A DNA stretch of 32,000 bases, from contig AP027131.1 in assembly GCA_027925225.1 (NCBI GenBank), positions 60,001 to 92,000 of the forward strand, given 5' to 3'. Of this stretch, positions 4,378 to 24,816 are shown piece after piece (within the stretch, counting starts at the first letter, position 1; each line of letters starts with the position of its first letter). This DNA is from Candidatus Saccharimonadota bacterium (GTDB taxonomy: Bacteria > Bacillota_I > Bacilli_A > Mycoplasmatales > Hepatoplasmataceae). Position numbers and translations under genes: made by a program. The notes below the pieces were generated by a model, which saw nothing but the letters and a program-made list of their open reading frames with translations, did not search any database and was not told the DNA's origin.

Positions 4378-5490
4378 TTAATGAAATCTTTTATTTTGAA
4401 TTCCTTTTGAAAATAATGCTAATAATAAAAACATTAATATATAAAAATATTGTAAAAGAAAATATATATTATAAAAATTATAAGAAACTTTAGTGTTTGG
4501 TTCGTTTGGATCTATAACATAAGACGTTGAATCTCAATGAAAAATATGTGGTAAAAACATTTCGTTAATTGTTAATGTGCTTGTATCAATTAATACATTA
4601 TTAATATAATATGTTGTTGTGTCTGAATTAAGATTTGTACTATTTAATGATGTTATAAGTATTGATTGTAAAGCAAAAAATGGATAAAATATTGCAAGAA
4701 TTAAATATGGAACATCTGCTTTGGCATATCTAAGACCAATGCTAATATTTAAAGTTGAATTAGAGAAATTATAATAAAACTGATTTGGAATTTCTTTTAA
4801 ATATAAAATATTATTATCACTGCTGTATGTATAAGTTATATTTGGTATACAAAAATTAATTTTTATAATTAAGAGATTCATTATTAAAAATACAAAAAAT
4901 ATAAAAAGCATTAAGATAAAAAAAGTTTTTATAGTTTTTGTTATATTTTCTATAAAAAAACATATTGACATTATAATAATCGAAATTAATAATATACTAT
5001 AATACAATCAAAAATAATTAATTTTATTTAAATCAAAATTAAAAAATAAATAATCATTTGGTGCATAATCTTTAAAATCATTAACCTTATTATCAACAAC
5101 TGCTCCAGCTATTACAATCCCATAAATAAAAAATGTTAAAAGAATTACATTTAAAATAATTGATGAATAATTTTTTAATTGATATTTATTTTCTCCTCTT
5201 ATTCTTTCATATATGTTAGATTTTTTCAAATTATAAATAAATAAACCATAATTAAATATAAAGAAAAGAATTATACTTGTAACTACAATTAATGAATACA
5301 TTTCAAAAAAATTAAATGTATTTACTGATATAAAAATTATTATAAATAAAAAAATAAAAAATAATAATTGTTTTCACGAACACATTCTTCTAAAATATAA
5401 AATAAAAAAAGCAGAAAAATTAGTTTTCTCATTTTCAATATTTTCATAATTATTTTTATTTAAAATTTTTTTTTGAGATTTTATTTCCAT
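4378..5490 (-). CDS. Multi-pass membrane protein, paralog A of a 3-copy family (function unknown), immediately downstream of the Csn2-position ATPase
   Basis: ATG at 5490 (MEIKSQKKILNKNNYENIENEK...). Track ORFs 5008-5301 and 4534-5007 are in frame, separated by TGA. The TGA at 4534-4536 also reads through to TAA at 4378-4380, adding a last hydrophobic helix (IYFLLQYFYILMFLLLALF). 370 aa with 7-8 hydrophobic segments. Confidence 0.75.
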
Positions 5491-5552
5491 ATTTTTTTAA
5501 AATTTTTTATTGTATATATTAATTTTAAAAAAATTTGTATATATTTTTATAA

Positions 5553-6653
5553 TTATATTTTTATCTCTTCATAATAATTTTTTAGTCAACTTGTAAATTT
5601 AATTTCATTAAATTTAATTTCATTAATAACTAAAAAAAGAATAAATTTAAATTTCTCATTTTCTGTGAGCATATCAATATTTCCATAAAATTCAAATGTT
5701 TTCAAATTAATGTTTCTAAGCAAATAAGGAAGAGTTATTTCCATAAAATCCTTTTCTATTTTTTTGAAGTCATTTTTTTCAATTAAATTATAAATTTCAT
5801 CAATTTTGATTTTAAAATCTCTTATATGATTTATATTAATTTTTCAAAAATTATTGTTTGACAATAAATAATAATTAATTAAAAAATCTTTATTTATAAA
5901 GAATTTTTTAATTTTTCTTTCTGAATTTGAAAGATAAAAAAATTCATTAACATTAATATTTAAATATTTTGTAAGGGCGGGATTTCTTAATGTAATAATT
6001 ATTAAATTATTTTTTGCAAGATTGTTTATTAATTCAGAAAGTTTTTTTATTTCTACTGGATCAAGATATGTTTCTGGACAATCAAAAATAAAAATTTTAT
6101 TTTTTGATTCTAATTCAATAATTAAATTTATATATATATTTAATTTTTCTGATTTAGATAATCATTTTTCTTCTATTTCTTCATTTTGTTTATCAAAAAT
6201 AGCAATTTTAAATAATAACTCAAGAATTTCAGAATCATTTTTAAAATTAAGTTTAGGATTTAAATGATAATTATTATTTTCAAATTTAATATATTTGTTC
6301 ATTGTTTCAAGAATTAAATTTAATATTTCGTTATTTTTTAAAATATTTGTTAAATCAATATTTTTTTCTTCTAATGTTTCCAAAATATGTTTAAAGATAA
6401 TTTTTCTTAAAATAGAGGTTTTTTTAAGTTCCAATTCTTTTTTTAAATCTCATTCTTCTGCAATATAAATTATTTCTCTTTTTTCATCATATTCTCGTTC
6501 TGAAAATACCTCTCTTTTTTTATTTTGTATTAATGAAATAAAATCATTTACAAAAGTTGTCTTCCCAGAATTATTTTCCCCATAAATAGCCATTATGTTA
6601 TTTTCGGTTTTAATTTTTAAATTATTATATTTATCATTTAAATAAATTTCCAT
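5553..6653 (-). CDS. ABC/SMC-type P-loop ATPase in the csn2 position (Csn2-like, motifs intact), 366 aa
   Basis: Hand-translated codon by codon from 6653 to 5553; only TGA interrupts the frame. Walker A is GENNSGKTT, the ABC-signature-like motif is LSKSEK, and Walker B is KIFIFDCPETYLDP, followed by NLIIITLRNP (His-loop position). It lies 83 nt downstream of cas2 on the same strand. Confidence 0.65.
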
Positions 6654-6736
6654 TATAAATTTATAATTCCTTTATTTAAAAAAATTATAAATGTAAAAAA
6701 CAGATTAAATCTTAATTATTGTTTTAAAATTATTTT

Positions 6737-7076
6737 TTAAATAATGATTAATGGTTCATCAGTTTGATAGTATTCTTTATTTTTTTTATTTCCCCTTATT
6801 ATTTCAATTTCCTCATATTGTTTATTTGTTATTACTAATAATCTAATATCTCCTTCAGGAGGCAAAATGTTATTAATTTTTTCTTTTGTTCTTTTTACTC
6901 AATCGTGATTATAACAATGTTTTAAATATACAGATTCTTGAATCATTATAAAACCAAGTTTTATTAATTCATTTCTAAATTTGTTCATATCAGATTGATT
7001 TTTTTTGCTTGTTGTTGGTAAGTCGTAAAATAAAAGTATTTTCATTTGTCTAAACTGAGTCTTTAATTTATCCATT
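6737..7076 (-). CDS. cas2: CRISPR-associated Cas2, apparently disrupted by a 1-nt frameshift after codon 8 of the MKILLFYD start
   Basis: ATG at 7046 (or 7076) gives MKILLFYD and then runs into TAG. The next frame reads LPTTSKKNQSDMNKFRNELIKLGFIMIQESVYLKHCYNHDWVKRTKEKINNILPPEGDIRLLVITNKQYEEIEIIRG...PLIII, ending at TAA 6737-6739. Joined, the two pieces match the type II Cas2 pattern (xxILLxFDxPT...FRKxLxxxGFxMxQxSVY). The start and stop frames differ by one nucleotide. Confidence 0.75.
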
Positions 7077-7096
7077 TTTTATTATTTTATCATTTA

Positions 7097-8200
7097 TTAA
7101 TTTATTTTCTTTTTATTAATTTTTCTTGAAATTAATGCTAATACTAAAAATAATAATATATAAAAATATGTTAATATGAAATATATATTATAAGCTGCAT
7201 AAGACATTTTAACATTGGGCTCTTCTAAAGTTCTTATATAAGATGTTGAATCTCAATGAAATAAATGAGGAATAAATAATTCATTTATTGTTGTTGTATC
7301 TGTATTTAAGACAACATTTCCAATATCGTATGTGTTACCCGGAAGAAGGGTGGTGTTATTAAAAGAGGTAATAAGAATTGATTGCAATGCAAAAAATGGA
7401 TAAAATATTGCTACAAATAAATACGGCACATCATAATTAGAAGCATTAAGACTCATACTTACATTTAAAGTATCACTGTTAATATCATAATAAATAAAGT
7501 TTTCAATTTCTCTGATATGTATTAAAGAGGTTGGATCATTTTCTACTGGATATGTTAGAATATTTGGCTTACAAAATTGTATTTTTATAAGTACAAGATC
7601 CATTATTAAATATATAAGAACAATTACAAACATTGTTATGAAAAAGTTTTTTACTGTTTTTGTAATATTTTCAACAAAAAAGCAAACTAACATAATAATT
7701 ATAGAAATTAATAACACACTATAATATAATCAAAAAAAATTAATTTCACTAAATTCAAAAGAATATACTAAAAAACCACCAGATTCATATTTAAAATCAT
7801 GAATCTGATTATCGACAACTGCACCTATTATTAATATTATGTAAATAAATAAGGTTAAAATAATTACATTTAAAATAATAGATGAATAATTTTTAAGTTG
7901 ATATTTTTTTTCTTCTCTTATCCTGGAATAAATATTTGATTTTTTTAAGTTATAAATAAATAATCCATAATTAAATGTAAAAAATAAAATAATACTTATT
8001 ACTGAAATAACAGAATACATTTCATAAAAATTTATTGTACTTATAGCAATAAAAATTATCATAAAAACAAAAAAATAAAATAGTAACTGTTTTCAGGAAC
8101 ACATTTTTTTAAAATAAAGCACAAAAAAAGCATAAAAGCTTAAATTTTTGTTTTCTTTTTTATTATTTATATTATTTTTAGTAAGATTCATACTTTGCAT
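7097..8200 (-). CDS. Multi-pass membrane protein, paralog B of the 3-copy family, located between cas1 and cas2
   Basis: ATG at 8200 (MQSMNLTKNNINNKKENKNLSFYAFF...). Track ORFs 7730-8062 and 7253-7717 are in frame. The TGA at 7253-7255 reads through to TAA at 7097-7099. 367 aa with the shared motifs FYPFFALQSILITS and PHLFHW. Confidence 0.75.
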
Positions 8201-8284
8201 TTAAGCAAGTTTAAATATTAAGAGTTTTGTTCGAGGTTTAAAATAAACTAATTATTTTTAAATTATATTTTATAAATCATTTTT

Positions 8285-9208
8285 TTAAAAATCTTCATTT
8301 TTATTGAAAGATATTTTTGGCAACATTAATTCTTTTTCATTATTTTTAAAGTATGAAATAATAGATTTTATAGTTATATCTATTGCATGTCTTACTTTTG
8401 TTATCTGATTATTTATTATTACATTTTGATCCAAAACAGAAACTAATTTAGCTCTCATTATTAAACTTATTGTTTCATCTTTTTCATTCAATAAAATTTC
8501 ATTATTTTCTACTATAATAAAATCTAATAGTGGTCTATAAGGTTCTATTAAGTCATAAGTAAGATTAAAATAATTATTTGCTGTTTTATGAAAAAAACCA
8601 AGAGAAGGATGAAGACCTGCTTTTACAATAGCACTTGAAATTTTACTTGCTAAAACTTTATATCCATAATTCATTGATTTGTTTATTGCATTATCTTGAA
8701 ATCTTATAAAACCCGAACCAAAAAGAGATATAAAATATAATCTAGCAGCCGATGATTCTCTATTTCTTTTATCTCCTTGAATTACATCATTATGATAGTT
8801 ATCCATTTTTTCTATGTTTATTTTTGAGGAGCCTAAATATTGCATTAATATTTTTTGGTTTTCTATTTTTTGTTTGATTATTTGTTGTTGAAATTTATCT
8901 TTTTCTCTTTGATTTAATTCTAATTGTAAATTAAAGTTTTGTAAAGGTTTGTGGTGACCATGAAGTGCTAATAGCAATCCTACTGGGTCATGAGATAAAT
9001 TATTTATCATAAGAGGAATATTTCTATTTGTAAGTTCAATTAGAGTTTGTATTGTTATATTTGTTTTGTAGTTATCAATAATAATAATCCCAATATCATC
9101 TAAATAAATTGGAATATTTTCTTCATTTTCCATTCCTCTTATAATTAGACTATTATTTTTTATTTTAATATTTTGATCAGTTTGTATAAAAACTGTTCTT
9201 CAATTCAT
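8285..9208 (-). CDS. cas1: CRISPR-associated integrase Cas1, type II (307 aa)
   Basis: The true start is ATG at 9208, giving MNWRTVFIQTDQNIKIKNNSLIIRG... (type II Cas1 N-terminus; the W is a TGA codon). It continues into track ORF 8285-9133, with NRESSAARLYF, GYKVLASKISSAIVKAGLHPSLGFFH and LTYDLIEPYRPLLD. Confidence 0.92.
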
Positions 9209-9327
9209 ATTTTAAAATTCCTTTTACAATTTATGAATTACATTTTTAATTTTTATCAAAATAATTATATAAAATAAGATATTATGTTTTTGATAATAAG
9301 TGATATATTCAATGAGAGGTGTTTTAA

Positions 9328-9639
9328 ATGAAAAAATTAATTATAGATGATGTAACTTTTAAAATTAAAAATGAAGAAGAAAAAGAAGATCTTATTAGAA
9401 TAATTAAAGAAATAAAAAGCAAATTAAAAGAATCTAATAATCTTCCTTCAAAAATATCTTTATTTAGAGATATTGATAAAGATAAAGATGTTTTTAAATT
9501 TTATATGGTATTTGATTCTGATGAAGATTTTGACAAATGAGATGCAAAAGTGACTCAAGAAGTAAAAGATCTTTTTATAAAAGGTTTACATAAATATTAT
9601 GTAAAATATAATTATTCAGAAAAAATTGATATTGATTAA
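9328..9639 (+). CDS. Small charged protein, family P copy 1 (103 aa, unknown function)
   Basis: SD-like GAGAGG precedes the ATG at 9328. The TGA at 9538-9540 reads as Trp (..DEDFDKWDAKV..). TAA at 9637-9639. Paralogous to 9677, 10032, 11755 and 12123. Confidence 0.7.
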
Positions 9640-9676
9640 TTTAAAAAAAATAATAAATTAAATAACAGGTGTTTAA

Positions 9677-9994
9677 ATGAAAAAAATAGTTATAGAAGAT
9701 ATGACTTTTAAAATTGAAAATAAAGAAGAAGAAAAAAATTTTATTGAAGGAATTCAAAAAATGAAAAAAATTTTAAAGGAATCATATGATATTCCTGCGA
9801 AATTTTCTTTATTTAAAAATGTTTATAAAAATAAAAATATTTTTAAACTTCATTTAGTATTCGAATCTGAAGAAGTTTATAGTGAATTTATTGCAAAAAT
9901 TTCTCAAGAAGATAGAGAAAAATTTAATGATTATTTGGGTAAATATGAAATAAAATATAGCCGTTTAGAAAAAAATGATATTAATAATTTTTAA
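9677..9994 (+). CDS. Small charged protein, family P copy 2 (105 aa)
   Basis: Intact ORF, MKKIVIEDMTFKIENKEEEKNF... It shares the family N-terminal and central motifs (PAKFSLFKN...IFKLHLVFESEE). Its C-terminus is the most divergent of the family. Confidence 0.7.
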   Translation: MKKIVIEDMTFKIENKEEEKNFIEGIQKMKKILKESYDIPAKFSLFKNVYKNKNIFKLHLVFESEEVYSEFIAKISQEDREKFNDYLGKYEIKYSRLEKNDINNF

Positions 9995-10031
9995 TAAAAA
10001 ATAGCAATATATTAAATGCAAAGGAGTTTAA

Positions 10032-10343
10032 ATGAAAAAATTAATCATAGAAGACATAACTTTTAAAATTGAAAATAAAGAAGAAGAAAAAAATTTTATT
10101 GATTGAATTAAAAAAATGAAAAAAGATTTAAAAGAATCAAATAATCTCCCTACAAAATTTTCTTTGTTTAGAGATATTGATAAAGATAAAGATATTTTTA
10201 AACTTTATTTAGTATTTGATTCTGATGAAGATTTTGACAAATGAGATGCAAAAGTACCTCAAAAAAATAAAGATGATTTTAGAAATGAGTTAGGTAAATA
10301 TTTTGTAAAATATAATTACTCAGAAAAAATTGATATTGATTAA
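10032..10343 (+). CDS. Small charged protein, family P copy 3 (103 aa)
   Basis: AAGGAG SD, then ATG at 10032. Two in-frame TGA codons (Trp). It ends ...KYNYSEKIDID with TAA at 10341-10343. Missed by the standard-code ORF track. Confidence 0.7.
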
Positions 10344-10356
10344 TATTTATAAAAAA

Positions 10357-10385
10357 AATACTGTTAAAACAGTATTTTTTATTTT
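10357..10385 (+). terminator. Rho-independent terminator after the P1-P3 cluster (shared with convergent membrane paralog C)
   Basis: AATACTG-TTAAAA-CAGTATT hairpin followed by a T-run, with an A-run upstream, so it could act in both directions. Confidence 0.55.
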
Positions 10386-11473
10386 ATGTTATTTTTATTA
10401 ATTTTTCTTGAAATTAATGCCAATACTAAAAATAGCAATATATAAAAATATGTTAATATAAAATATATGTTATAAGCTAAATAAGACATTTTAATATTAG
10501 ATTCATTGAAATCTGGGTTGTAAAGATTTAAATTTCAATGAAATAAATGAGGAAAAAATAATTCATTTATTACTGTATTATTGTTTAGCATAGTATTTCC
10601 AATATAATATGTTTTATCTGGAATTAGGCTAGTGTTATTAAGAGAAGTTATAAGAATTGATTGCAATGCAAAAAAAGGATAAAATATTGTACATATTAAA
10701 TATGGCACTTCTTCTTTTTGCGTATTAAGAGCAATACTTACATTTAAAGCATTATTTGAAGCATCATAATATAAATAATTATCAATTTCTTTAAAAGTCA
10801 CTTTATTTGTTTCACTATCTACTGCATCAACTATTATGCTTGGTCTACAAAATGAAATTTTTATAAATACAAGATCCATTATTAAATATATAAAAACAAT
10901 AGCAAACATTATTATGAAAAAATTTTTTACTGTTTTTGTAATATTTTCAACAAAAAAGCAAACTAACATAATAATTATTGAAATTAATAAAACACTATAA
11001 TATAATCAAAAAAAGTTAATTTCACTAAAAACAAAGGAAAATGTTAAATAATTACTAGTTTCTGGTTTAAAATCATTGATTGTATTATCAATAACAGCTC
11101 CTAAAATTATTATTAAATAAATAAATATTGTTAAAATGATTACATTTAAAATTATCGAAGAATAATTTTTAAGATGATATTTTTCTTCTCCTCTTATTTT
11201 AGAATAGATATTTGATTTTTTTAAATTGTAGATAAACAAACCATAATTAAATGTAAAAAACAAAATTATGCTTATTACAATAACTATTGAATACATTTCA
11301 TAAAAATTCAATGTGCTTATAGAAATATAAATTATTAAAAAAACAAAAAAATAAAATAACATTTGTTTTCAAGAACACATTTTTTTAAAATAAAGTGTAA
11401 AAAAACAAAAAAAGCTTAAATTTTTATTTTCTTTTTTATTATTTATATTATTTTTAATTTTTATATTATTCAT
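10379..11473 (-). CDS. Multi-pass membrane protein, paralog C of the 3-copy family
   Basis: ATG at 11473 (MNNIKIKNNINNKKENKNLSFFCFF...). Track ORFs 11006-11362 and 10535-10969 are in frame. The TGA at 10535-10537 reads through to TAA at 10379-10381. 364 aa. Confidence 0.75.
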
Positions 11474-11689
11474 ATTTTGTGTTTAATTATTAAATTTTTT
11501 TCTAATTTTAAATATAATGTTATTTTTTTACTGATTATATTTTATAAGTTTGTTTTTTAAATAAAGATTTTTTATTTTAATAATCTAATTAATTTTATAA
11601 TATTATTTTTAAATTTATAAAATCCTTTTCTAGAAATTAAAAGTTTTTTAAAAAAACATAAAAAACCTAAATGTGAATTTAAAAGTGAT

Positions 11690-11743
11690 ATATAAAAATA
11701 CATTTTAAAATATAATTATGTAGAAAAAATTGATATTGATTAA
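11690..11743 (+). pseudogene. 3' fragment of a sixth family-P gene
   Basis: Reads ...KYILKYNYVEKIDID-TAA (stop at 11741-11743), matching the conserved family C-terminus (KYNYSEKIDID). No upstream coding part remains. Confidence 0.5.
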
Positions 11744-11754
11744 TAGGAGGAAAA

Positions 11755-12063
11755 ATGCAAAAATTTTATAATTTTGAAATTACATTTAAAGTTAATAAAA
11801 TAGATCAAACAGATTTTTTAAAAAATTTAAAAACAATTAAAAATGAATTAACTAATAAAAATGTTTTGCCAATTTATATAACATTATTTAAAAATATTGA
11901 TAAAAATAAAGATTTTTTTACAATATATTTAGGTTTTATGAGTGATAAAGGTTTTGATGAATGAAAGAAAAATGTTCCTCAAGAGTTAAAAAATATATAC
12001 AATAATAATTTAAAAAAATATGTTATTAAAACAGACCACAAAGAACAACAAAGCATTGACTAA
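11755..12063 (+). CDS. Small charged protein, family P copy 4 (102 aa, most divergent N-terminus)
   Basis: AGGAGG SD, then ATG at 11755. One in-frame TGA (..GFDEWKKNVPQE..). TAA at 12061-12063. Confidence 0.65.
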
Positions 12064-12122
12064 TTAAATAAAATATAAAATATTAAATTTATTTATGAAA
12101 TATATTTTTTATGGAGTTTAAA

Positions 12123-12434
12123 ATGAAAAAATTAATTATAGATGATGTAACTTACAAAATTGAAAAAGAAGAAGATCAAAAAGCTTTTATTGAAAAAATG
12201 AAAGAAGTAAAAAGTAAATTAAAAAAAATTAACTTACTTCCTACTAAATTTTCTTTATATAGAGATATCGATAAAGATAAAGATACTTTTAAGCTTTATA
12301 TGGTATTTGATTCTGATGAAGATTTTGATAAATGAGATGAAAAATTTCCTCAAGAAATTAGAGATATCTTTATAAATTATTTTCGTAAATATCTTATAAA
12401 ATATAATTATTCAGAAGAAATTGATATTGATTAA
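12123..12434 (+). CDS. Small charged protein, family P copy 5 (103 aa)
   Basis: GGAG SD, then ATG at 12123 (MKKLIIDDVTYKIEKEED...). The track start at 12111 is less likely. The TGA at 12333-12335 reads as Trp. TAA at 12432-12434. Confidence 0.7.
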
Positions 12435-12454
12435 TTAATTATTTAATTATAAAA

Positions 12455-12478
12455 AATACTGCTAAAGCAGTATTTTTT
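12455..12478 (+). terminator. Rho-independent terminator after P4-P5
   Basis: AATACTGC-TAAA-GCAGTATT followed by a T-run. It is a near copy of the terminator at 10357-10385. Confidence 0.55.
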
Positions 12479-12520
12479 ATATAAAAATCAATTAGCTAAA
12501 ACCAATCAATTAACCAAAAC
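12479..12520 (-). repeat. Orphan CRISPR-repeat remnants (two tandem partial repeats, no spacer)
   Basis: TATAAAAATCAATTAGCTAAAAC followed by CAATCAATTAACCAAAAC. The second contains 16 nt (ATCAATTAACCAAAAC) identical to the 3' part of the plus-strand array repeat. Orientation is the same as the array. Confidence 0.6.
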
Positions 12521-12603
12521 ATATTTTAAGTATATTTAATAGGTTTATATAATTTTTCATTTTTTTTGTTTAAGTTTATATTTATTTTAGGGAGATAAAT
12601 ATT

Positions 12604-16879: not shown

Positions 16880-16910
16880 ATTCATTTTTATGAGTTAATT
16901 AACATTAAAA

Positions 16911-16939
16911 AAACTTCTTTACTAAAAAGAAGTTTTTTT
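16911..16939 (+). terminator. Rho-independent terminator after the ROK kinase gene
   Basis: AAACTTCTT-TACTAAA-AAGAAGTTT followed by T7. Confidence 0.6.
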
Positions 16940-16944
16940 AATTT

Positions 16945-17040
16945 TATTTCATTTAATTATAAATATCAATTAACTAAAACACATTATTCACAAAGTGTTA
17001 TTTATAAATATCAATTAACTAAAACACATTATAAATATAC
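16945..17040 (-). repeat. Degenerate CRISPR repeats detached from the main array
   Basis: 16945-16980 (TATTTCATTTAATTATAAATATCAATTAACTAAAAC) matches about 29 of 36 repeat positions. 17003-17025 (TATAAATATCAATTAACTAAAAC) is a 23-nt partial repeat. The core TATAAATAT recurs at 17030-17038. Confidence 0.7.
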
Positions 17041-17313: not shown

Positions 17314-20300
17314 TTTTTTTTATTACTATAAATATCAATTAATCAAAACCTCCTATAAATATTTCTCATACTATATTGTGTATTCATCTGCTTATAAATA
17401 TCAATTAACCAAAACATAAACAAAAATGCCACCACTCTTAATATAGTATTCATCTGCTTATAAATATCAATTAACCAAAACTTAAGATATACTATTTTTG
17501 GAACAACTAAAGTATTCATCTGCTTATAAATATCAATTAACCAAAACATTTCATTGACCTAGAAGAAGCACGCTTAAGTATTCATCTGCTTATAAATATC
17601 AATTAACCAAAATGATGAGTTTGTTGTTAATACATTAGTATTTGTATTCATCTGCTTATAAATATCAATTAACCAAAACCAAATGGGGCATACCATCCAA
17701 TTATGCTGGGTATTCATCTGCTTATAAATATCAATTAACCAAAACGTCCAGACAGTAGATTACAGAGACCTGAATGTATTCATCTGCTTATAAATATCAA
17801 TTAACCAAAACAGTTTATCATATGTGTTTATTTCGTAGAAAGTATTCATCTGCTTATAAATATCAATTAACCAAAACTATAAAAAATATCATAAATAGTA
17901 TAATATTGTATTCATCTGCTTATAAATATCAATTAACCAAAACACACTCATTTATTTTTATTTTTAATTCTTTGTATTCATCTGCTTATAAATATCAATT
18001 AACCAAAACCCCCCCCTTTTCTGCCTTTTGTGGAACGTATTCATCTGCTTATAAATATCAATTAACCAAAACATCTTCTTCAGATAATCTGATATTAAAG
18101 CCGTATTCATCTGCTTATAAATATCAATTAACCAAAACAAATACTTAAATTGGCTCATATTATTCAAAGTATTCATCTGCTTATAAATATCAATTAACCA
18201 AAACACCAAAAAACATCAGCAGAGAGCGCATATTGTATTCATCTGCTTATAAATATCAATTAACCAAAACAAGAAGATTTATTTAAAAATGTACAAAAAG
18301 GTATTCATCTGCTTATAAATATCAATTAACCAAAACGTGTTTAGGGTCTATATTAAAAGAAAAAATGTATTCATCTGCTTATAAATATCAATTAACCAAA
18401 ACGTGGATTATTTGAAGAATTATATTATGAAAGTATTCATCTGCTTATAAATATCAATTAACCAAAACCCCCTATGGTCTGCCTTATGTGGAACTAGGGT
18501 ATTCATCTGCTTATAAATATCAATTAACCAAAACGTTTAACTAGCAGTAGGGGGGTCTTTTATGGTATTCATCTGCTTATAAATATCAATTAACCAAAAC
18601 TAGGTGGATAAACTAATAGGGTGGATTGAAGTATTCATCTGCTTATAAATATCAATTAACCAAAACTTAACAAGAGATTTATACATTTCTTTAATTGTAT
18701 TCATCTGCTTATAAATATCAATTAACCAAAACGAGAAAACTATACTGATTTTTATATTTCTAGTATTCATCTGCTTATAAATATCAATTAACCAAAACTA
18801 TGTAGGGTTATTGCTTAAATAATAACTAGTATTCATCTGCTTATAAATATCAATTAACCAAAACATAATTCTTGCTCTGTCTCTGTAATTTCTCGTATTC
18901 ATCTGCTTATAAATATCAATTAACCAAAACGTTATCTCTTAGAAATGTTTACCCAATTTAGTATTCATCTGCTTATAAATATCAATTAACCAAAACAATT
19001 TTGAAGATGCTCCTAATTATTTAGATGTATTCATCTGCTTATAAATATCAATTAACCAAAACTATGTGGGATTATTGCTTAAATAATAACTAGTATTCAT
19101 CTGCTTATAAATATCAATTAACCAAAACGAATTCCACCAAGCATTAAATCAAATACACGTATTCATCTGCTTATAAATATCAATTAACCAAAACCTAAGG
19201 TGTCTGCCACTCACCTATTTATTTGTATTCATCTGCTTATAAATATCAATTAACCAAAACACTCTTAAATTAATATCACTTAAATCATTAGTATTCATCT
19301 GCTTATAAATATCAATTAACCAAAACACTCATATTAATCATTTACTTGTGGACAGAGTATTCATCTGCTTATAAATATCAATTAACCAAAACGATCAATG
19401 GGAACTGGAAAAGATTTACTTAGTATTCATCTGCTTATAAATATCAATTAACCAAAACAACTCTTTCATGTTTATGATAAATCAACCTGTATTCATCTGC
19501 TTATAAATATCAATTAACCAAAACACCATCAGGAAACCCAACAACAGGATCAGTGTATTCATCTGCTTATAAATATCAATTAACCAAAACTAATGCTAGC
19601 ATCATAAGAAGAAGAATATTGTATTCATCTGCTTATAAATATCAATTAACCAAAACGTTCTCAATACTTTAATTCTTAAATTTATAGTATTCATCTGCTT
19701 ATAAATATCAATTAACCAAAACTAATACCAGCATCATAAGAAGAAGAATATTGTATTCATCTGCTTATAAATATCAATTAACCAAAACGGTTGGTGGTCA
19801 CTATATGTAGTATCCAATGTATTCATCTGCTTATAAATATCAATTAACCAAAACTATTTTTTATTCAACAATATAAACATATTAGTATTCATCTGCTTAT
19901 AAATATCAATTAACCAAAACGAAAGAATTAATAAATTTAAGAGCATAAAAGTATTCATCTGCTTATAAATATCAATTAACCAAAACTTAGTTTAACCACC
20001 TATCAAGTAGTAGTTCGTATTCATCTGCTTATAAATATCAATTAACCAAAACGTAAGGGATTTGTTGAGCATGGTTTTGTTAGTATTCATCTGCTTATAA
20101 ATATCAATTAACCAAAACTCTATCTTAGATAAATCAAGTTCTTTTAAAGTATTCATCTGCTTATAAATATCAATTAACCAAAACGGGTCATTCTAAAAGA
20201 AAAAAATAAATGAAGTATTCATCTGCTTATAAATATCAATTAACCAAAACTTGCCTCTTTTATCTTTTATACCACTATGAGTATTCATCTGCTTATAAAT

Positions 20301-20316
20301 ATCAATTAACCAAAAC
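17314..20316 (-). CRISPR. CRISPR array: 45 full 36-nt repeats plus 1 degenerate terminal repeat, and 45 spacers (44 of 30 nt, 1 of 27 nt)
   Basis: The plus-strand repeat is GTATTCATCTGCTTATAAATATCAATTAACCAAAAC, and the minus-strand sense is GTTTTGGTTAATTGATATTTATAAGCAGATGAATAC. Repeat starts at 17380, 17446 ... 20281 were checked one by one. The period is 66 nt except 17974 to 18037 (63 nt). The degenerate repeat at 17314-17349 marks the trailer end. Transcription direction is inferred from the GTTTT start, the cas9 strand and the tracrRNA polarity. Confidence 0.97.
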
Positions 20317-20324
20317 ACCTTAAA

Positions 20325-20330
20325 ATTATA
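20325..20330 (-). promoter_or_regulatory. Candidate -10 box (TATAAT) in the 32-nt leader between the cas9 stop and the first repeat
   Basis: The minus strand reads AATGAGACTTTTTTTTATTATAATTTTAAGGT and then the repeat. The TATAAT lies about 8 nt before the first repeat. No convincing -35 element. Confidence 0.3.
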
Positions 20331-20348
20331 ATAAAAAAAAGTCTCATT

Positions 20349-23300
20349 TTATGAGATTTTTCCAAGTAAGTTTATATTTAAAATATTTATTTTTTTAATT
20401 ATATTTTTAGAATATTGTGGTCAATAATTAAAATTTTTATTAAATTTAATTGCATTTCCATAATATAAATTAGGATGTGAAATTAATAAAACCCTTGCAT
20501 TACTAGCAACTCCATTATATTTATAAATTTCAAATTCATTATTAATTTTAAAAATTACATTTCTATTAATTAATGTTTTAATTTTTCCTTCATTAACTTG
20601 ATGTTTAAATATTGCTTCTAATTTAAAATTTTCATTAAATCTAAAACCATAATATGATCTTATATCTCAAATATTATTTTTATTATCTTTTATAAAACCT
20701 TTTTTTAATTTTCCTTCTTCAAAAGAATCTTTATGATTAACTGGATTTTCACTTCCTAAGAAGTTTCCTCTTACTTTTTTGTTTATTTTATAAGAAACAA
20801 TTGGATAATCTCTTTCAGATTTATTATTTAATTTTGCCCAATCTTTTATATCAATTATTTTTTCAAATTTTGGTTCTAAAAAAGTTTTCTTTTTTATTTC
20901 TTTTTCCTCTTCGATTAATTTTATTGGAATTAAATTATTTACTATTTTAGGAAAATTTTTTATTAATGGTTTTATGCTTTTTGAAGCAAAATTATTTTTA
21001 TAAATACTAACTCTTATTAATTTATCAAGATTTGAAGCATAATTTATTAATGAATTTGAACTTATTGTAATTACATTTTCAAAAAAATCATTTTTATATT
21101 CTTTATTAAAGTTATTTTTTCTAAGCTGTTCAATAATTACTTTTTTCTGTTTTTCTAAGTTTTCATATATTTCATTTTTTGTTAATATATTGTTTTTTTT
21201 ATATTCATCAATTAATCAATTGTAATAATCAAAAATTCTAATAATTGATTGATAAAATTCAATATGTTGTTTTGAAATCATATTTATTAAAATCATTGCA
21301 TCAACCGCGTGATGGAATGGACTTATATCTCTTGGTTTACTTTCATGTCCTCAAAGACTTCCATCATATTCAAATGGTTTAAGTCAAAGCTTTCTAAATT
21401 TAGATGTTATTCCACCTTGAACAGTTAATATTTCTGGTTTTTTTTCTTTTGTTATTTTTGAAAATCTGTCAAACTCCAAATCAAAATATCCTTGAATGTA
21501 TTTTGTTATATAACGAGTATCATTGATATTTCTTGATTCAAAACCAGATTCAATTGATCTATTTATATTTTCTTTTAATAAATATTCTAGTTTAGTTGTA
21601 TTTTTATTTTTATAGAATTTAATTATTTCTTTTTTTCAATTTTCAATTTTTTTCTTTTCTATTCCGTTTTTTTCAAAGTAATCAAGAGGTGTTAAATTTT
21701 TTTTTAAATTATTATCTTTTTTTGTAGTAATAATTTTATTATTATTTGTATTGTCATTATATTGTGAATAGGGAATAATATGATCAACATCATAATTTAT
21801 TCTATTAACAAAAAAATCTTTTAAAAGAATTTTTTCTTTAAGATTAATATCATAAATATTTATTGCATAATCTTCTTTTATTGCATCTTTTGTAATTTGT
21901 TGTTGCTTAAAGAGAAAATAATTACTTATATTTGTTGGGCTTGGATTTATTCCATTTTTTATTAATATTTCTTCAGCTTTTTTTCTTCCTTCTTCGTTTT
22001 TATCTTGTCTTGCTTTAACATCTTTTCTAACTTTCTCTTCCGCATAAAGATCTTTTGCAACTTCAATTATTATTTTGTCAAATTTATTAAATTTTTCAAA
22101 TAATTTTCTTACAACTTTTCTTGTTTGATTTATTGACCTAAAAACAACAGCATTTTTTACCATGTCTGGATCATTTATTCTTTTTAAAAATTCATCTTTT
22201 GTTAATTTAAATTTTTTTATTTTTTCTTCATTATTTTTTTTATTTAATTCACTTTCATATTTCTGTCTTAAAATACCATTATTAATTTGTTTTGAAAGAG
22301 AATCTAAAATAAATTTTGAAGAAGTGTTTAATGTTTTGTGTCCTTTTGTTATTCATTTTTCATTTTTCCTTAATCAATCGTACCCATCATTTTTATCTTT
22401 AAAAAAATCATCTATTTTTATTAATGCATTTTTTAATTTTTCTGGAGTTTTTATTTCTGAAAGAGTTTTGCCAATTTTATTAATTTTATTTGTAGTTATT
22501 GTTGATAAATTTTCTAAATTAATTTTTTTAATATGCTCTTTTAAAAATAAATTATTATCTTTTATTGAATTAAATTTAACTAAAAATAATTGTGCGTTTT
22601 CAAAACTAATTCCATCCATTTTTGGAATTTCAAGATTATTTTCTTTTAATAAATCTGTTACAAAATTTCTTTTAAATTCAATTTTGTCAAAATAATTTAA
22701 AATTATTTTTTTTGTTAAATTTTTAATTAATTCTTCTGTTAAATTATTTTCTTTATTACTTTTTTCATTTTCTAAAATTTTTGAAAATAATTTAGAAGTT
22801 TCACTTGTTATAAAAGAGAGATCACCTTCTATTGAAAAATTAGAAATTCTTTTTTCATTTGGATAGAATTGGCAATTTCCTATCATAGCTGTAAAAGGTT
22901 CATAAAAAAAACTTTTTGAATCTTTTTTCATTTTATTTTTTCAATTTTCAAGAATTTCTTTATCTTTTGGACCTGGCCCATCTTCAAAAAAACGTTGTCT
23001 AAAAATTGTATTTTTTATTTTTGTTTTTAGATTATCAAATATAGGATTAAATTCTATTTGTTTTTCTATTAGTGCTATATATTCTCTTTCATAATCTTCT
23101 CTTTTAAACAATAATTGGTGTTCTTCATAAAATTTTATTTTTTCTTTTTCTAATTCAGTTTTTTCTTTTTTTCCAAGAATATCCTTATTTATTTTTTTAC
23201 TACGATACATAAATTTTTCAGGTTGATCAAAAGAAAAGTGTTTATCTTCTATAATAGCTTTTATTGGATAATTATATTTTTCAATTAATCCTTTAGCTCT

Positions 23301-23798
23301 TTCTAAAGAATTTCTATCATCCTTGTCTTGAGTAGAATTTGGAATAATAAAAGCATTATTATATCCCCTTCTTTTAGCAATGTGCACTAAAGCAATAAGT
23401 AATTGAAGATTTGTTAATTTCTCATTTAATCCTTTATAACGGAGTAATAGTGGATTAATATTTTTATTATTAGAATACTCACCTTTTTCTTTAGTTTTTT
23501 TAATGTGTTCTTCATATTCTTCTTTTGTTATTAAATTATTGCTGTAAAATATTTTTTTTAAATCTTCTATTCTTTGCTTTCTTCTATCTGTTAATCTTCT
23601 TTGAGATCTAAAACCTCTTCTTTTATAAGCATTTGTCTCAAGGGTTTTTGAATCTTCTGGTGCATCTCAAATTCTTACTCCAAAATCATCAATTTCAAGA
23701 TTTGGTTCATTATTTTCTTCATCATAAGAATATGTTCCTACTGCTCACCCTAAAGATGTAACCCCTATATCAAGTCCTAAAATTTTTTCTTTTTTCAT
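20349..23798 (-). CDS. cas9: Cas9 endonuclease, 1149 aa, catalytic motifs intact
   Basis: The ATG at 23798 gives MKKEKILGLDIGVTSLGWAVG (RuvC-I, Asp10). Also IIIEVAKD (RuvC-II), NYDVDHIIPYSQ (HNH, His codon at 21780-21782) and PFHHAVDAM (RuvC-III, 21300-21320). Track fragments 22941-23387, 22374-22931 and 21636-22163 and the C-terminal region are all in one frame, separated by TGA. TAA at 20349-20351. Confidence 0.95.
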
Positions 23799-23905
23799 TT
23801 TACTTTTAAACACTCCAATAAAATATATTTATCTCTAATTTTTATTTAAATTATAAACCTTAAAATATTTGCTCTTTTTATTTTTAGTTATTTTCTCAAA
23901 AAAAG

Positions 23906-23934
23906 TTGTCTTTTTTAAATTTACTTATTATAAT
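23906..23934 (+). promoter_or_regulatory. Sigma-70-type promoter for the tracrRNA (TTGTCT, 17 nt, TATAAT)
   Basis: TTGTCT at 23906-23911 and TATAAT at 23929-23934 with exactly 17-nt spacing. The predicted start near 23941 is 8 nt upstream of the first anti-repeat. Confidence 0.5.
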
Positions 23935-23940
23935 GAAATT

Positions 23941-24125
23941 GAACTATCTAGTTTATTTGTTTATAAATGTCAATTAACCAAAACAAAAATTCATCTGTTT
24001 ATAAATATCAATTAGCCAAGATAGTGATTTACTTGAGATTTGATTATAAATTTCAAGGGACATCTTAGGGTACCCAGGTAACCCTGTAATCCCCCTGGTT
24101 GAGCATCTTTTGATGCTCTTTTTAT
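23941..24125 (+). ncRNA. tracrRNA (primary transcript about 185 nt) with two tandem anti-repeats, stem-loops and an intrinsic terminator
   Basis: Anti-repeat A (23949-23984) and anti-repeat B (23987-24022) both align without gaps to the plus-strand repeat, so both are complementary to the crRNA repeat. A 9-bp stem follows at 24033-24056 (TTGAGATTT/AAATTTCAA), then GC-rich stems at 24067-24098 and the terminator GAGCATC-TTTT-GATGCTC plus T-run at 24101-24125. It is divergent from cas9, as in many type II loci. Confidence 0.8.
24101..24125 (+). terminator. Intrinsic terminator of the tracrRNA
   Basis: A perfect 7-bp stem GAGCATC/GATGCTC with loop TTTT, followed by TTTTTATTTT. Confidence 0.75.
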
Positions 24126-24126
24126 T

Positions 24127-24816
24127 TTATTTATTTTTTAACTTTTTGTTTAATAATAGACTTTTTTTCAAAAAAACTATAAATAAAATAATAGAGCTTA
24201 AACCAATAATTGCATTTCTTTCAAAAATTAGAAATGCTTCTTTTGACATTCCTGGAGAAATACATAACAAAGAAATCATAAAAATAAAACTCATAACAAT
24301 TAAAAAAGCAATTATTAAATAATAGACTTTTATTTGTTTAAATTTAAAAAAAGAAATTATCGATAAAGATGCAATGCTAAATAATATCGAAAAAACCCAA
24401 GCAAGAATTACTTCTTTAAATTGGCTATCATTGTTATACGATCCTTTAAAAGTTATAAGTATTGAAGAAAGTAAAATAAGATGAAAAATAATAAAAATTA
24501 ATGAAATTACAAATGCTTTAAGATTTCTTTTTTCTTTGAATAAATTAAGTTTTTCCAAAAATATATATGTGTATGTAAAAAACAAAGTAAATCATATATT
24601 TAAAAGTAATAAAACATACATTCATTTATCTCTTATTAGAATAAAATTATCTTCATTATTTTTATCAGCAAAAGTAGCAAGTGTTTTTATATTAAAATAA
24701 AATGTCATTAAAAGTAAAAATGATGAAACAAAAAGGATTAAATTTTTTATGCAAAATGTTTTTTTAAAATAAAAAAACATAATACTAAAATTTTCTTTTA
24801 ATTTCTTATTATTCAT
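24127..24816 (-). CDS. Hypothetical multi-pass membrane protein (229 aa)
   Basis: Track ORFs 24622-24816 and 24127-24585 are in frame, joined through two TGA codons. Hydrophobic throughout. No family recognised. Confidence 0.55.

Follow-up and report, generated by a model that had tools for sequence, protein, structure and literature searches.

Tandem anti-repeats and a predicted fold-back helix in the putative tracrRNA gene of Candidatus Hepatoplasma vulgare and of distant type II CRISPR-Cas loci

The window analysed here, a stretch of 32,000 nucleotides, originates from Candidatus Hepatoplasma vulgare, has 23% G+C and uses genetic code 4. This mollicute is an isopod gut symbiont and is represented by a metagenome-assembled genome (MAG) from the pill bug Armadillidium vulgare (Kawato et al. 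2024). The Cas9 protein encoded in the window shares an identity of 100% with the Ca. Hepatoplasma vulgare protein and contains the Pfam domains HNH_4, RuvC_III and Cas9 bridge helix. The adaptation genes cas1, cas2 and a candidate csn2 are located on the cas9 strand approximately 11 kb from cas9 and complete, together with cas9 and the CRISPR array, the components of a type II-A locus (Table 1). The array starts 32 nt past the cas9 stop codon, the gap holding a terminator hairpin and a TATAAT box. Its repeat, which reads GTATTCATCTGCTTATAAATATCAATTAACCAAAAC on the plus strand, occurs in 45 perfect or near-perfect copies. Since the minus-strand repeat begins with GTTTTGG and the degenerate terminal copies lie at the low-coordinate end of the array, the crRNAs are minus-strand RNAs. 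The genome paper reports the cas genes and makes no mention of a tracrRNA (Kawato et al. 2024).

Table 1. Features of the CRISPR-Cas locus and of the putative tracrRNA gene (positions of the window).
Feature	Position	Strand	Remarks
Candidate Csn2	5553-6671	-	ATPase-like; assignment after Kawato et al. 2024
Cas2	6737-7078	-	
Cas1	8285-9211	-	
CRISPR array	17380-20316	-	45 repeats of 36 nt, spacers of ~30 nt
cas9	20349-23798	-	1149 aa, code 4; divergent from the tracrRNA gene
P1, putative promoter of the long tracrRNA	23906-23934	+	TTGTCT, 17-nt spacer, TATAAT (23929-23934); 10/12 consensus matches
P2, promoter-like	23939-23967	+	TTGAAC (23939-23944), 17 nt, TATAAA (23962-23967); read from the sequence
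5' leader	23941-23949	+	GAACTATCT; ACUAUCU (23943-23949) pairs with AGAUAGU (24019-24025)
Unit A, upstream full-length second anti-repeat	23949-23984	+	TAGTTTATTTGTTTATAAATGTCAATTAACCAAAAC; 34 contiguous pairs, 5 G.U
Linker between units	23985-23986	+	AA; 9 nt in L001, ~6 nt in L002 (alignment)
Unit B, canonical anti-repeat	23987-24022	+	AAATTCATCTGTTTATAAATATCAATTAGCCAAGAT, ends with CCAAGAU; 30 Watson-Crick + 4 G.U
First scaffold hairpin	24032-24057	+	CUUGAGAUUUGAUUAUAAAUUUCAAG; folds; position kept, sequence varies among relatives
Conserved scaffold core	24067-24098	+	predicted H-type pseudoknot
Pseudoknot stem 1	24067-24071 / 24081-24085	+	
Pseudoknot stem 2	24074-24078 / 24094-24098	+	CCAGG / CCUGG; covaries
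Intrinsic terminator	24101-24125	+	GAGCATC-TTTT-GATGCTC (hairpin 24101-24118), then T run

On the strand opposite to cas9, 150-225 nt upstream of this gene, two anti-repeats follow each other, here termed units A and B. According to the first-pass annotation of this DNA both align without gaps to the plus-strand repeat, and the alignment reproduced its coordinates and sequences exactly. Apart from positions 1 and 2, unit A differs from the repeat by A3G, C6T, C9T, C12T and A21G and unit B by C12T, A29G, A34G and C36T, as had been listed. All nine changes from position 3 onwards are A>G or C>T, so that each unit and the crRNA repeat still form a helix of 34 bp without interruption. The in-silico co-fold of each unit with the repeat, which had been proposed as a check, yielded G.U wobbles and no internal mismatch. 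The duplex of unit A and the crRNA repeat comprised 29 Watson-Crick pairs, five G.U pairs and two terminal mismatches (-41.2 kcal/mol) and that of unit B 30 Watson-Crick pairs, four G.U pairs and two terminal mismatches (-44.5 kcal/mol), compared to -51.1 kcal/mol for the perfect complement. Either unit thus pairs at 34 of its 36 positions in the manner of the anti-repeat of a type II tracrRNA.

The expected number of matches at 29 out of 36 positions is about 1e-5 per strand for 32 kb, and 100 shuffles contained none. Given the composition of the repeat, the probability that all nine changes preserve pairing by wobble lies between 1e-6 and 5e-4, according to the share of transitions that is assumed, and that for the five changes of unit A alone between 5e-4 and 1.5e-2. 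Chance does not explain the match to the repeat and the wobble-type changes. Furthermore, A>G accounts for four of the nine changes, a direction that would run counter to the AT mutation pressure expected at 23% G+C.

Contigs encoding relatives of the window Cas9 served as the set of orthologous loci, among them L001 (Cas9 identity of 74%), L002 (55%) and L005/L006 (45%). The earlier assignment of a scaffold and terminator to the 3' side of unit B only was borne out by the folding of the first hairpin and by the terminator scan (one terminator found, 0.1 expected). The counterpart of this hairpin in L002 (ATGTAA...TTACAT) occupies the equivalent position. Stem 2 of the predicted pseudoknot reads UCAGG/CCUGA in L002 and CGGG/CCCG in L005, and occurs in many further variants, e.g. 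AUGGUGG/CCACCGU and AUGACGG/CCGUCAU, in the distant clade described below. The 3' region is therefore that of a type II tracrRNA, a structured scaffold of predicted hairpins and covarying helices which ends in an intrinsic terminator. An Rfam scan of positions 23800-24250 returned no matching model, the only hit being a chance one to IMES-5 (E=3.4). Neither a BLAST search of the tracrRNA locus against plasmids nor an exact-pattern scan of JGI metagenomes with CAATTAGCCAAGATAGTGATT gave a match.

A consensus scan also returned the promoter TTGTCT-17-TATAAT at 23906-23934 (P1) from which the first-pass annotation had derived a transcription start about 8 nt before unit A. The TATAAT box of P1 is invariant in L001 and L002 and has a constant distance from the leader, which favours a start upstream of unit A. 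The -10 box and the leader helix are separated by 8 nt in the window, the mode in the distant clade being 9 nt. To this extent the proposed start is supported; however, it has a rival inside unit A, since a second promoter-like sequence (P2) predicts a start at approximately position 23974. P2 was not listed by the promoter scan because the latter demands a T as the last base of the -10 hexamer. Both P1 and P2 are consensus-like and are regarded as putative promoters. P2 could yield a short tracrRNA without unit A, and it may co-exist with P1.

In L001, unit A (36/36 positions), the TATAAT box and the leader TTGAACTATC are identical to those of the window, compared to 97 of 167 identical four-fold synonymous sites in cas9 (58%) and 40 of 69 identical positions in the DNA upstream of the -10 box. 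The probability of a perfect conservation over the 36 nt of unit A is about 3e-9, and between these two loci the unit is evidently subject to purifying selection. Unit B of L001 carries two extra changes, C9T and C23T, which still form G.U pairs with the repeat of L001 itself. In L002, unit A is identical at 30 of 36 positions, the 3' 25 nt being unchanged and six 5' positions being different. The changes at positions 2, 5 and 11 are common to unit B, and the L002 repeat, of which only a part is located on the contig, shows G>A at position 11 with a compensating A in both units. The G at position 21, which is specific to unit A, is kept in all three species (window, L001 and L002). Taking into account this A-specific G21 and the co-variation with the repeat, unit A appears to be maintained in its own right and not simply to be overwritten from unit B or the array. 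Gene conversion between the two units (concerted evolution) could mimic such a co-variation with the repeat. In the comparison of orthologous loci, another check proposed at the outset, unit A was thus found to be conserved and to change with the repeat instead of decaying, which supports the earlier view that both units belong to a plus-strand RNA and are under selection for pairing with the repeat.

L005 and L006 encode a shorter upstream copy, the complementarity of which is lost at its 3' end. Since the upstream copy lacks the lower-stem part in L005 as well as in the distant clade, one can speak of a full second anti-repeat in the H. vulgare group only. G.U-tolerant scans and a search for the scaffold motif in the fetched flanks of cas9 revealed no convincing tracrRNA in Ca. 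H. scabrum, Ca. H. crinochetorum, Ca. Tyloplasma and L008; hence, these could not be used as orthologues.

A scan with a Cas9 profile, considering one genome per species, resulted in 79 loci. The tandem layout recurs in a large clade of Clostridia, Negativicutes and related MAGs with the repeat family GTTTTAGTTCTCTGATGGATATTGATAAACTTATAC, whose Cas9 proteins are 26-30% identical to that of the window. About 49 of these distant loci (45 detected by alignment and four, L039, L058, L062 and L073, by eye) share the order of -10 box, short leader, upstream anti-repeat copy and true anti-repeat. The two anti-repeat-like units are located opposite to the cas9 strand, with a distance of 31-56 nt between their starts (median 45). 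On its 3' side the downstream unit continues into ...GTTCTAAGAT AAGGC..., corresponding to lower stem and nexus. The upstream unit spans the anti-repeat positions from ~1 to 24-31, without the part that belongs to the lower stem. It tracks the repeat variant of its own locus, e.g. CCTATAT versus TCAATAT, which likewise applies to the GAATGTCCGAG subfamily. The alignment of the upstream units with the complement of their own repeat in 45 loci gave 1034 identities and 56 deviations, 42 of which were wobble-type and 14 of other kinds. The wobble-type deviations comprised 34 A>G and eight C>T, whereas only one T>C and two G>A were among the others. This asymmetry is predicted by selection on a plus-sense pairing RNA, the 45 loci being phylogenetically non-independent. 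Due to the common scaffold, including the covarying predicted pseudoknot, the tracrRNAs of both clades are homologous. The layout is not universal, since L089 and L091 (Cas9 identity of 32-33%) each have just one anti-repeat of the ordinary kind, encoded on the same strand as cas9. In the distant clade the start codon of cas9 lies very close to the tracrRNA promoter.

The leader upstream of unit A is complementary to a segment that consists of the last four nucleotides of unit B and three nucleotides further (Table 1). This pairing is part of the minimum free energy (MFE) folds of the window, L001, L002 and L005 RNAs, and the palindromic centres of units A and B pair as well in the fold of the window RNA. 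An RNAalifold prediction on 45 long tracrRNAs was hampered by the variable linker, which spoiled the alignment, gave an uninformative consensus and was replaced by folds of the individual loci and explicit helix tests. A Watson-Crick helix of at least 5 bp between leader and unit B was detected in 46 of 48 loci, with a mean length of 6.2 bp as opposed to 4.0 bp in shuffles. The helix is preserved by compensatory variants such as CUUAGAA:UUCUAAG, CUUAGAUU:AAUCUAAG, CUCAGG:CCUGAG, CUCAGA:UCUGAG, ACUAUCU:AGAUAGU and UUGACU:AGUCAA. In the distant clade the leader GAACUUAGAAG..UGAUG pairs with both UUCUAAG of the lower stem and CAUCAG of the upper stem of unit B. The first-pass annotation did not include this helix, which alters the mechanism to be considered likely.

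The MFE folds of eight distant and four Hepatoplasma-type RNAs share the same topology. All eight representative distant RNAs form a stem resembling that of a single-guide RNA (sgRNA), with lower stem, bulge and short upper stem, and carry the upstream copy in a protruding extension. Judged from these models, the long tracrRNA can fold like a single-guide RNA without a guide. As the predicted start precedes the leader helix by 2-3 nt, it leaves no room for a guide. The fold-back is weak, with energies of -11 to -13 kcal/mol and z scores of -1.4 to -2.0.

With its unit B, hairpins and terminator, its position adjacent to cas9, its complementarity to the repeat and the G.U pairs with which its lower stem begins, the predicted RNA resembles the canonical type II tracrRNA, which is said to have been described by Deltcheva and colleagues in 2011. 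It differs from the latter in the second complete anti-repeat 2 nt upstream within the same predicted transcript and in the pairing of its leader to the end of unit B. Two anti-repeats have been reported for Lactobacillus gasseri, where they are found at separate positions in one locus and not in tandem (Chylinski et al. 2013, PMC3737331). In the literature searched, no tandem, second, duplicated or partial anti-repeats are described for type II systems, the only tracrRNAs with two anti-repeats being those of Cas12k (type V-K). In the Cas12k tracrRNAs, however, a single repeat is bound by two short segments at different parts, whereas two full-length tandem copies are present here, each of which could pair with an entire repeat.

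The long tracrRNA of Streptococcus pyogenes (tracr-L) is a natural single guide, the 11-13 nt guide of which targets the cas9 promoter (bioRxiv 10.1101/2020.05.21.102756), and the catalogue of such RNAs has been greatly enlarged using the same target criterion (bioRxiv 10.64898/2026.06.01.729453). The H. vulgare RNA would share with tracr-L a long isoform transcribed from an upstream promoter, a 5' extension on the lower stem of the anti-repeat, a large protruding insertion in the upper stem and possibly the arrangement of two promoters. Its lower-stem pairing ACUAUCU:AGAUAGU corresponds to that of tracr-L, although the sequence differs from the GTTTTA used by Workman et al. In tracr-L, however, the extension is sense and repeat-like and carries a guide of at least 11 nt that matches a PAM-adjacent site in the cas9 promoter, whereas the H. 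vulgare extension is an antisense copy of the anti-repeat and is predicted to start about 2-3 nt before the fold-back helix, without a guide. No k-mer of at least 9 nt is shared between positions 23935-24030 and 23761-23936 on either strand, where at least 11 nt are expected of tracr-L. Autorepression of the tracr-L type was thus rejected for H. vulgare. The RNA seems to be partly alike in its self-pairing long isoform and to possess a different extra element, and we do not file it as tracr-L.

The scaRNA of Francisella novicida and the scaRNAs that regulate Cas9 likewise derive from a repeat, lie outside the array and are involved in repeat:anti-repeat pairing. In contrast to unit A, which has the sense of the anti-repeat and would pair with crRNA repeats, scaRNAs have the sense of the repeat, bear a guide and pair with the tracrRNA. 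A scaRNA or regulatory mini-array was also rejected as a classification of the tandem units themselves, which are oriented as anti-repeats on the strand of promoter, scaffold and terminator and are separated by a gap of 2 nt. A mini-unit downstream of the array (17040-16900) was considered as a scaRNA, but no sequence near cas9 is a convincing target of its 21-nt "spacer", and elsewhere there are only AT-rich near-matches. Standalone repeat units and mini-arrays (Shmakov et al. 2023) represent repeat-like intergenic sequences in CRISPR-cas loci as well. Those of type II systems are mostly unconserved, whereas unit A is conserved, oriented as an anti-repeat and located inside a tracrRNA gene.

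A tracrRNA is usually regarded as one anti-repeat joined to a scaffold, a view on which both the design of sgRNAs and software for the detection of tracrRNAs are based. With a conserved second anti-repeat, the biogenesis of crRNAs in type II systems, or its regulation, would gain a new element, and the same would apply to a primary transcript that folds like an sgRNA without a guide in dozens of distantly related loci; both would stand beside the autoregulation by tracr-L and yet differ from it. For the annotation of such loci it should be considered that Cas9 is presumably loaded by another anti-repeat than the one nearest to the promoter. Compact Cas9 proteins (~1100-1150 aa) and cultured organisms are available as test systems, the latter including Gemmiger sp. 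An50 (L031), Anaerovibrio sp. JC8 (L078) and Eubacteriaceae bacterium ES2 (L085), which belong to the distant clade and share the layout. The conservation of the extra copy suggests that it is not junk and points to an undescribed step in the acquisition of guides by Cas9.

We regard it as moderately probable that unit A is transcribed and acts as a second docking site which pairs with the repeats of the pre-crRNA. The long form of the tracrRNA would be transcribed from P1 and extend from approximately 23941 to the terminator near 24125. Its 5' extension would comprise the leader as the partner of the 3' (lower-stem) end of unit B, and unit A, which is kept complementary to the repeat with tolerance of G.U pairs. 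In the free RNA the weak fold-back would result in the shape of a single guide without guide sequence, with unit A in the protruding extension. In the presence of pre-crRNA, the repeats would pair with unit B and also with unit A, so that one tracrRNA may hold two consecutive repeats, the upstream one on unit B and the next one on unit A, while the spacer is looped out. A co-fold of the 5' domain with a repeat-spacer-repeat RNA, in which both units were paired, reached -90.9 kcal/mol compared to -12.2 and -19.0 kcal/mol for the two RNAs alone. Long RNA duplexes are substrates of RNase III, and the duplexes of both units would be long enough to be cleaved in vivo. The Cas9-binding scaffold is joined to the duplex of unit B only, and the loaded guide would then derive from unit B only. 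Unit A would represent an auxiliary docking or processing site for pre-crRNA that is removed from the mature tracrRNA. Its contribution to crRNA maturation or Cas9 loading might consist in additional affinity in a very AU-rich system, in a landing pad on a long tracrRNA already bound by Cas9, in an extra processing site or in the titration of repeats.

More tentatively, and in our estimation rather unlikely in its entirety, a self-paired, guide-less natural sgRNA could be a common trait of a large clade of type II systems, from Hepatoplasma of the isopod gut to Clostridia and Negativicutes of the gut. The exposed second anti-repeat would then capture the pre-crRNA or sense its amount, trigger RNase III and hand over the crRNA to the true anti-repeat, which would render Cas9 loading a crRNA-responsive switch.

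It also seems unlikely that unit A and the leader act in cis only, as a structural or regulatory 5' domain analogous to tracr-L which masks unit B or occupies Cas9 without a guide. The complementarity to the repeat would in that case be a by-product of the paralogy with unit B and of the pairing with repeat-like pieces of the same RNA. The leader:unit B helix indeed covaries, and C30, A24 and A19 of unit B are the Watson-Crick partners of A3G, C9U and C12U of unit A in the fold of the window RNA. Furthermore, the leader and linker of the distant clade hold the sense-repeat-like motifs UUGAUG, UAAAC and AUUGA, which pair with unit A or B in the MFE folds, and tracr-L of S. pyogenes provides a precedent for a 5' extension folded onto the anti-repeat (bioRxiv 10.1101/2020.05.21.102756). 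However, the partners in cis span only a part of unit A, whereas conservation extends to the entire unit (36/36), which follows the array repeat along 25-36 nt. The bias towards wobble-type changes was moreover measured against the array repeat, the fold-back is weak compared to the pairing with the repeat (-12 versus -41 kcal/mol), and the RNA offers neither a guide nor a promoter target.

A function of unit A at the DNA level appears improbable. P2 would here drive a short canonical tracrRNA from approximately 23974, the "leader" would be its -35 box and unit A would be located outside the functional RNA. The hexamers and the spacing of P2 are as good as those of P1 (10/12), TTGAAC and TATAAA are kept by both L001 and L002, the corresponding site of L005 reads TTGACT, and nested promoters of a long and a short tracrRNA are found in S. 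pyogenes (bioRxiv 10.1101/2020.05.21.102756). However, a promoter requires neither an identity of 36/36 nor wobble-only deviations nor the co-variation with position 11 of the repeat. The distant clade, in addition, keeps the upstream copy without a comparable internal promoter and with a consensus -10 box upstream of the leader, and this leader covaries with unit B as RNA.

A functional RNA encoded on the minus strand, with the repeat-like units as a mini-array or scaRNA-like element upstream of cas9 that pairs with the tracrRNA, is very unlikely. It would agree with the occurrence of regulatory scaRNAs in the 5' UTR of cas9 or downstream of arrays (bioRxiv 10.64898/2026.06.01.729453) and with the short distance between cas9 start codon and tracrRNA promoter in the distant clade. 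On this strand, however, the nine changes become U>C and G>A and, according to the pairing rules, would create mismatches with the anti-repeat of the tracrRNA. The "spacer" would comprise just 2 nt, a match of at least 9 nt to the cas9 promoter region is lacking, and promoter, scaffold and terminator are all located on the plus strand.

Finally, the interpretation of unit A as a neutral remnant of an anti-repeat duplicated in tandem, which is consistent with the derived states shared by both units at positions 2 and 12 and with the view that most standalone repeat units in type II systems are non-functional (Shmakov et al., bioRxiv 10.1101/2023.03.03.530964), is extremely improbable and already largely refuted by the perfect conservation of the unit against a background identity of ~58%, by the persistence of the layout across Cas9 proteins that are 26-30% identical and by the asymmetry of the deviations (34 A>G versus one T>C). 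Truly decayed repeat copies look different: those beside the array (16945-16980 and 17314-17349), which served as internal control, contain transversions and internal mismatches, with five and seven mismatches and pairing energies of -32.8 and -25.7 kcal/mol, respectively.

The scaffold portion of the tracrRNA appears to fold into an H-type pseudoknot (24067-24098), in which the loop CCAGG of a GGGU/ACCC hairpin is predicted to pair with CCUGG located 16 nt downstream, forming the second stem. The same pseudoknot was predicted in the relatives whose Cas9 proteins share 74%, 55% and 45% identity with that of the window (L001, L002 and L005, respectively) and in about 40 distant loci of Clostridia, Negativicutes and related MAGs. 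Its second stem covaries widely among these loci (UCAGG/CCUGA, CGGG/CCCG, AUGGUGG/CCACCGU, AUGACGG/CCGUCAU, UUGCAG/CUGCAA). The tracrRNA survey papers that were consulted make no mention of a pseudoknot.

The CRISPR leader comprises merely ~32 nt (20317-20352). Since TATTATAAT directly follows the cas9 terminator hairpin and precedes the first repeat, the pre-crRNA is predicted to start almost at repeat 1. The same short arrangement of terminator hairpin and first repeat was detected in L001 and L002. L001 retains cas9, cas1, cas2 and a tracrRNA with both anti-repeat units, and its array is reduced to two repeats, one full and the other truncated, and a single spacer (L001:7156-7250); despite this shrunken array, unit A is perfectly conserved.

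Gapless, G.U-tolerant scans within 10 kb of cas9 identified no tracrRNA anti-repeat in Ca. H. scabrum, Ca. H. crinochetorum, Ca. Tyloplasma litorale or the further locus L008. The three named species carry large arrays (65, 26 and >150 repeats, respectively). Their tracrRNA is either encoded elsewhere or too diverged for such scans.

Two small repeat-like units were detected outside the array (see table). In the separate unit past the array end, a TATAAT-like box is followed by a 24-nt truncated repeat (GTTTTAGTTAATTGATATTTATAA) and, after 21 nt, by a 36-nt repeat-like copy and a terminator hairpin; the unit has a counterpart in L001 (L001:7374-7427). It resembles an orphan mini-array or a scaRNA-like gene, scaRNAs being repeat-derived regulatory small RNAs that pair with tracrRNA. 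No convincing target of its 21-nt "spacer" was found near the cas9 promoter. The second unit, which lacks a spacer, is preceded by a TAAAAT box, followed by a terminator hairpin and kept in L001 (L001:13184-13207). It could be left over from a former array position or encode a further small RNA.

Features of the split locus and the repeat-like units
Feature	Position	Strand	Remark
Paralogue of the 367-aa membrane protein	4378-5496		close paralogue
Csn2-like ATPase	5553-6671		
cas2	6737-7078		
367-aa multi-pass membrane protein	7097-8200		between cas1 and cas2
cas1	8285-9211		
Paralogue of the 367-aa membrane protein	10379-11482		close paralogue
Paralogue of the ~103-aa ORFs	11716-12063		
Paralogue of the ~103-aa ORFs	12087-12434		
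Two truncated repeat-like units in tandem	12450-12530	minus	GTTTTGGTTAATTGATT G GTTTTAGCTAATTGATTTTTATAT; no spacer
Separate small unit	16900-17040	minus	~290 nt beyond degenerate last array repeat

The type II-A locus is split (4378-11482). In Ca. H. scabrum and Ca. H. crinochetorum, unlike in the window, the array is located upstream of cas9; cas1-cas2 lie ~8 kb away.

Furthermore, a 355-bp unit occurs in three tandem copies (9303-10356; 76% matches), each encoding a complete ORF of ~103 aa, for which no Pfam match was found. Together with two further paralogues, these ORFs form an expanding small-protein family that lies between cas1 and the remainder of the locus.
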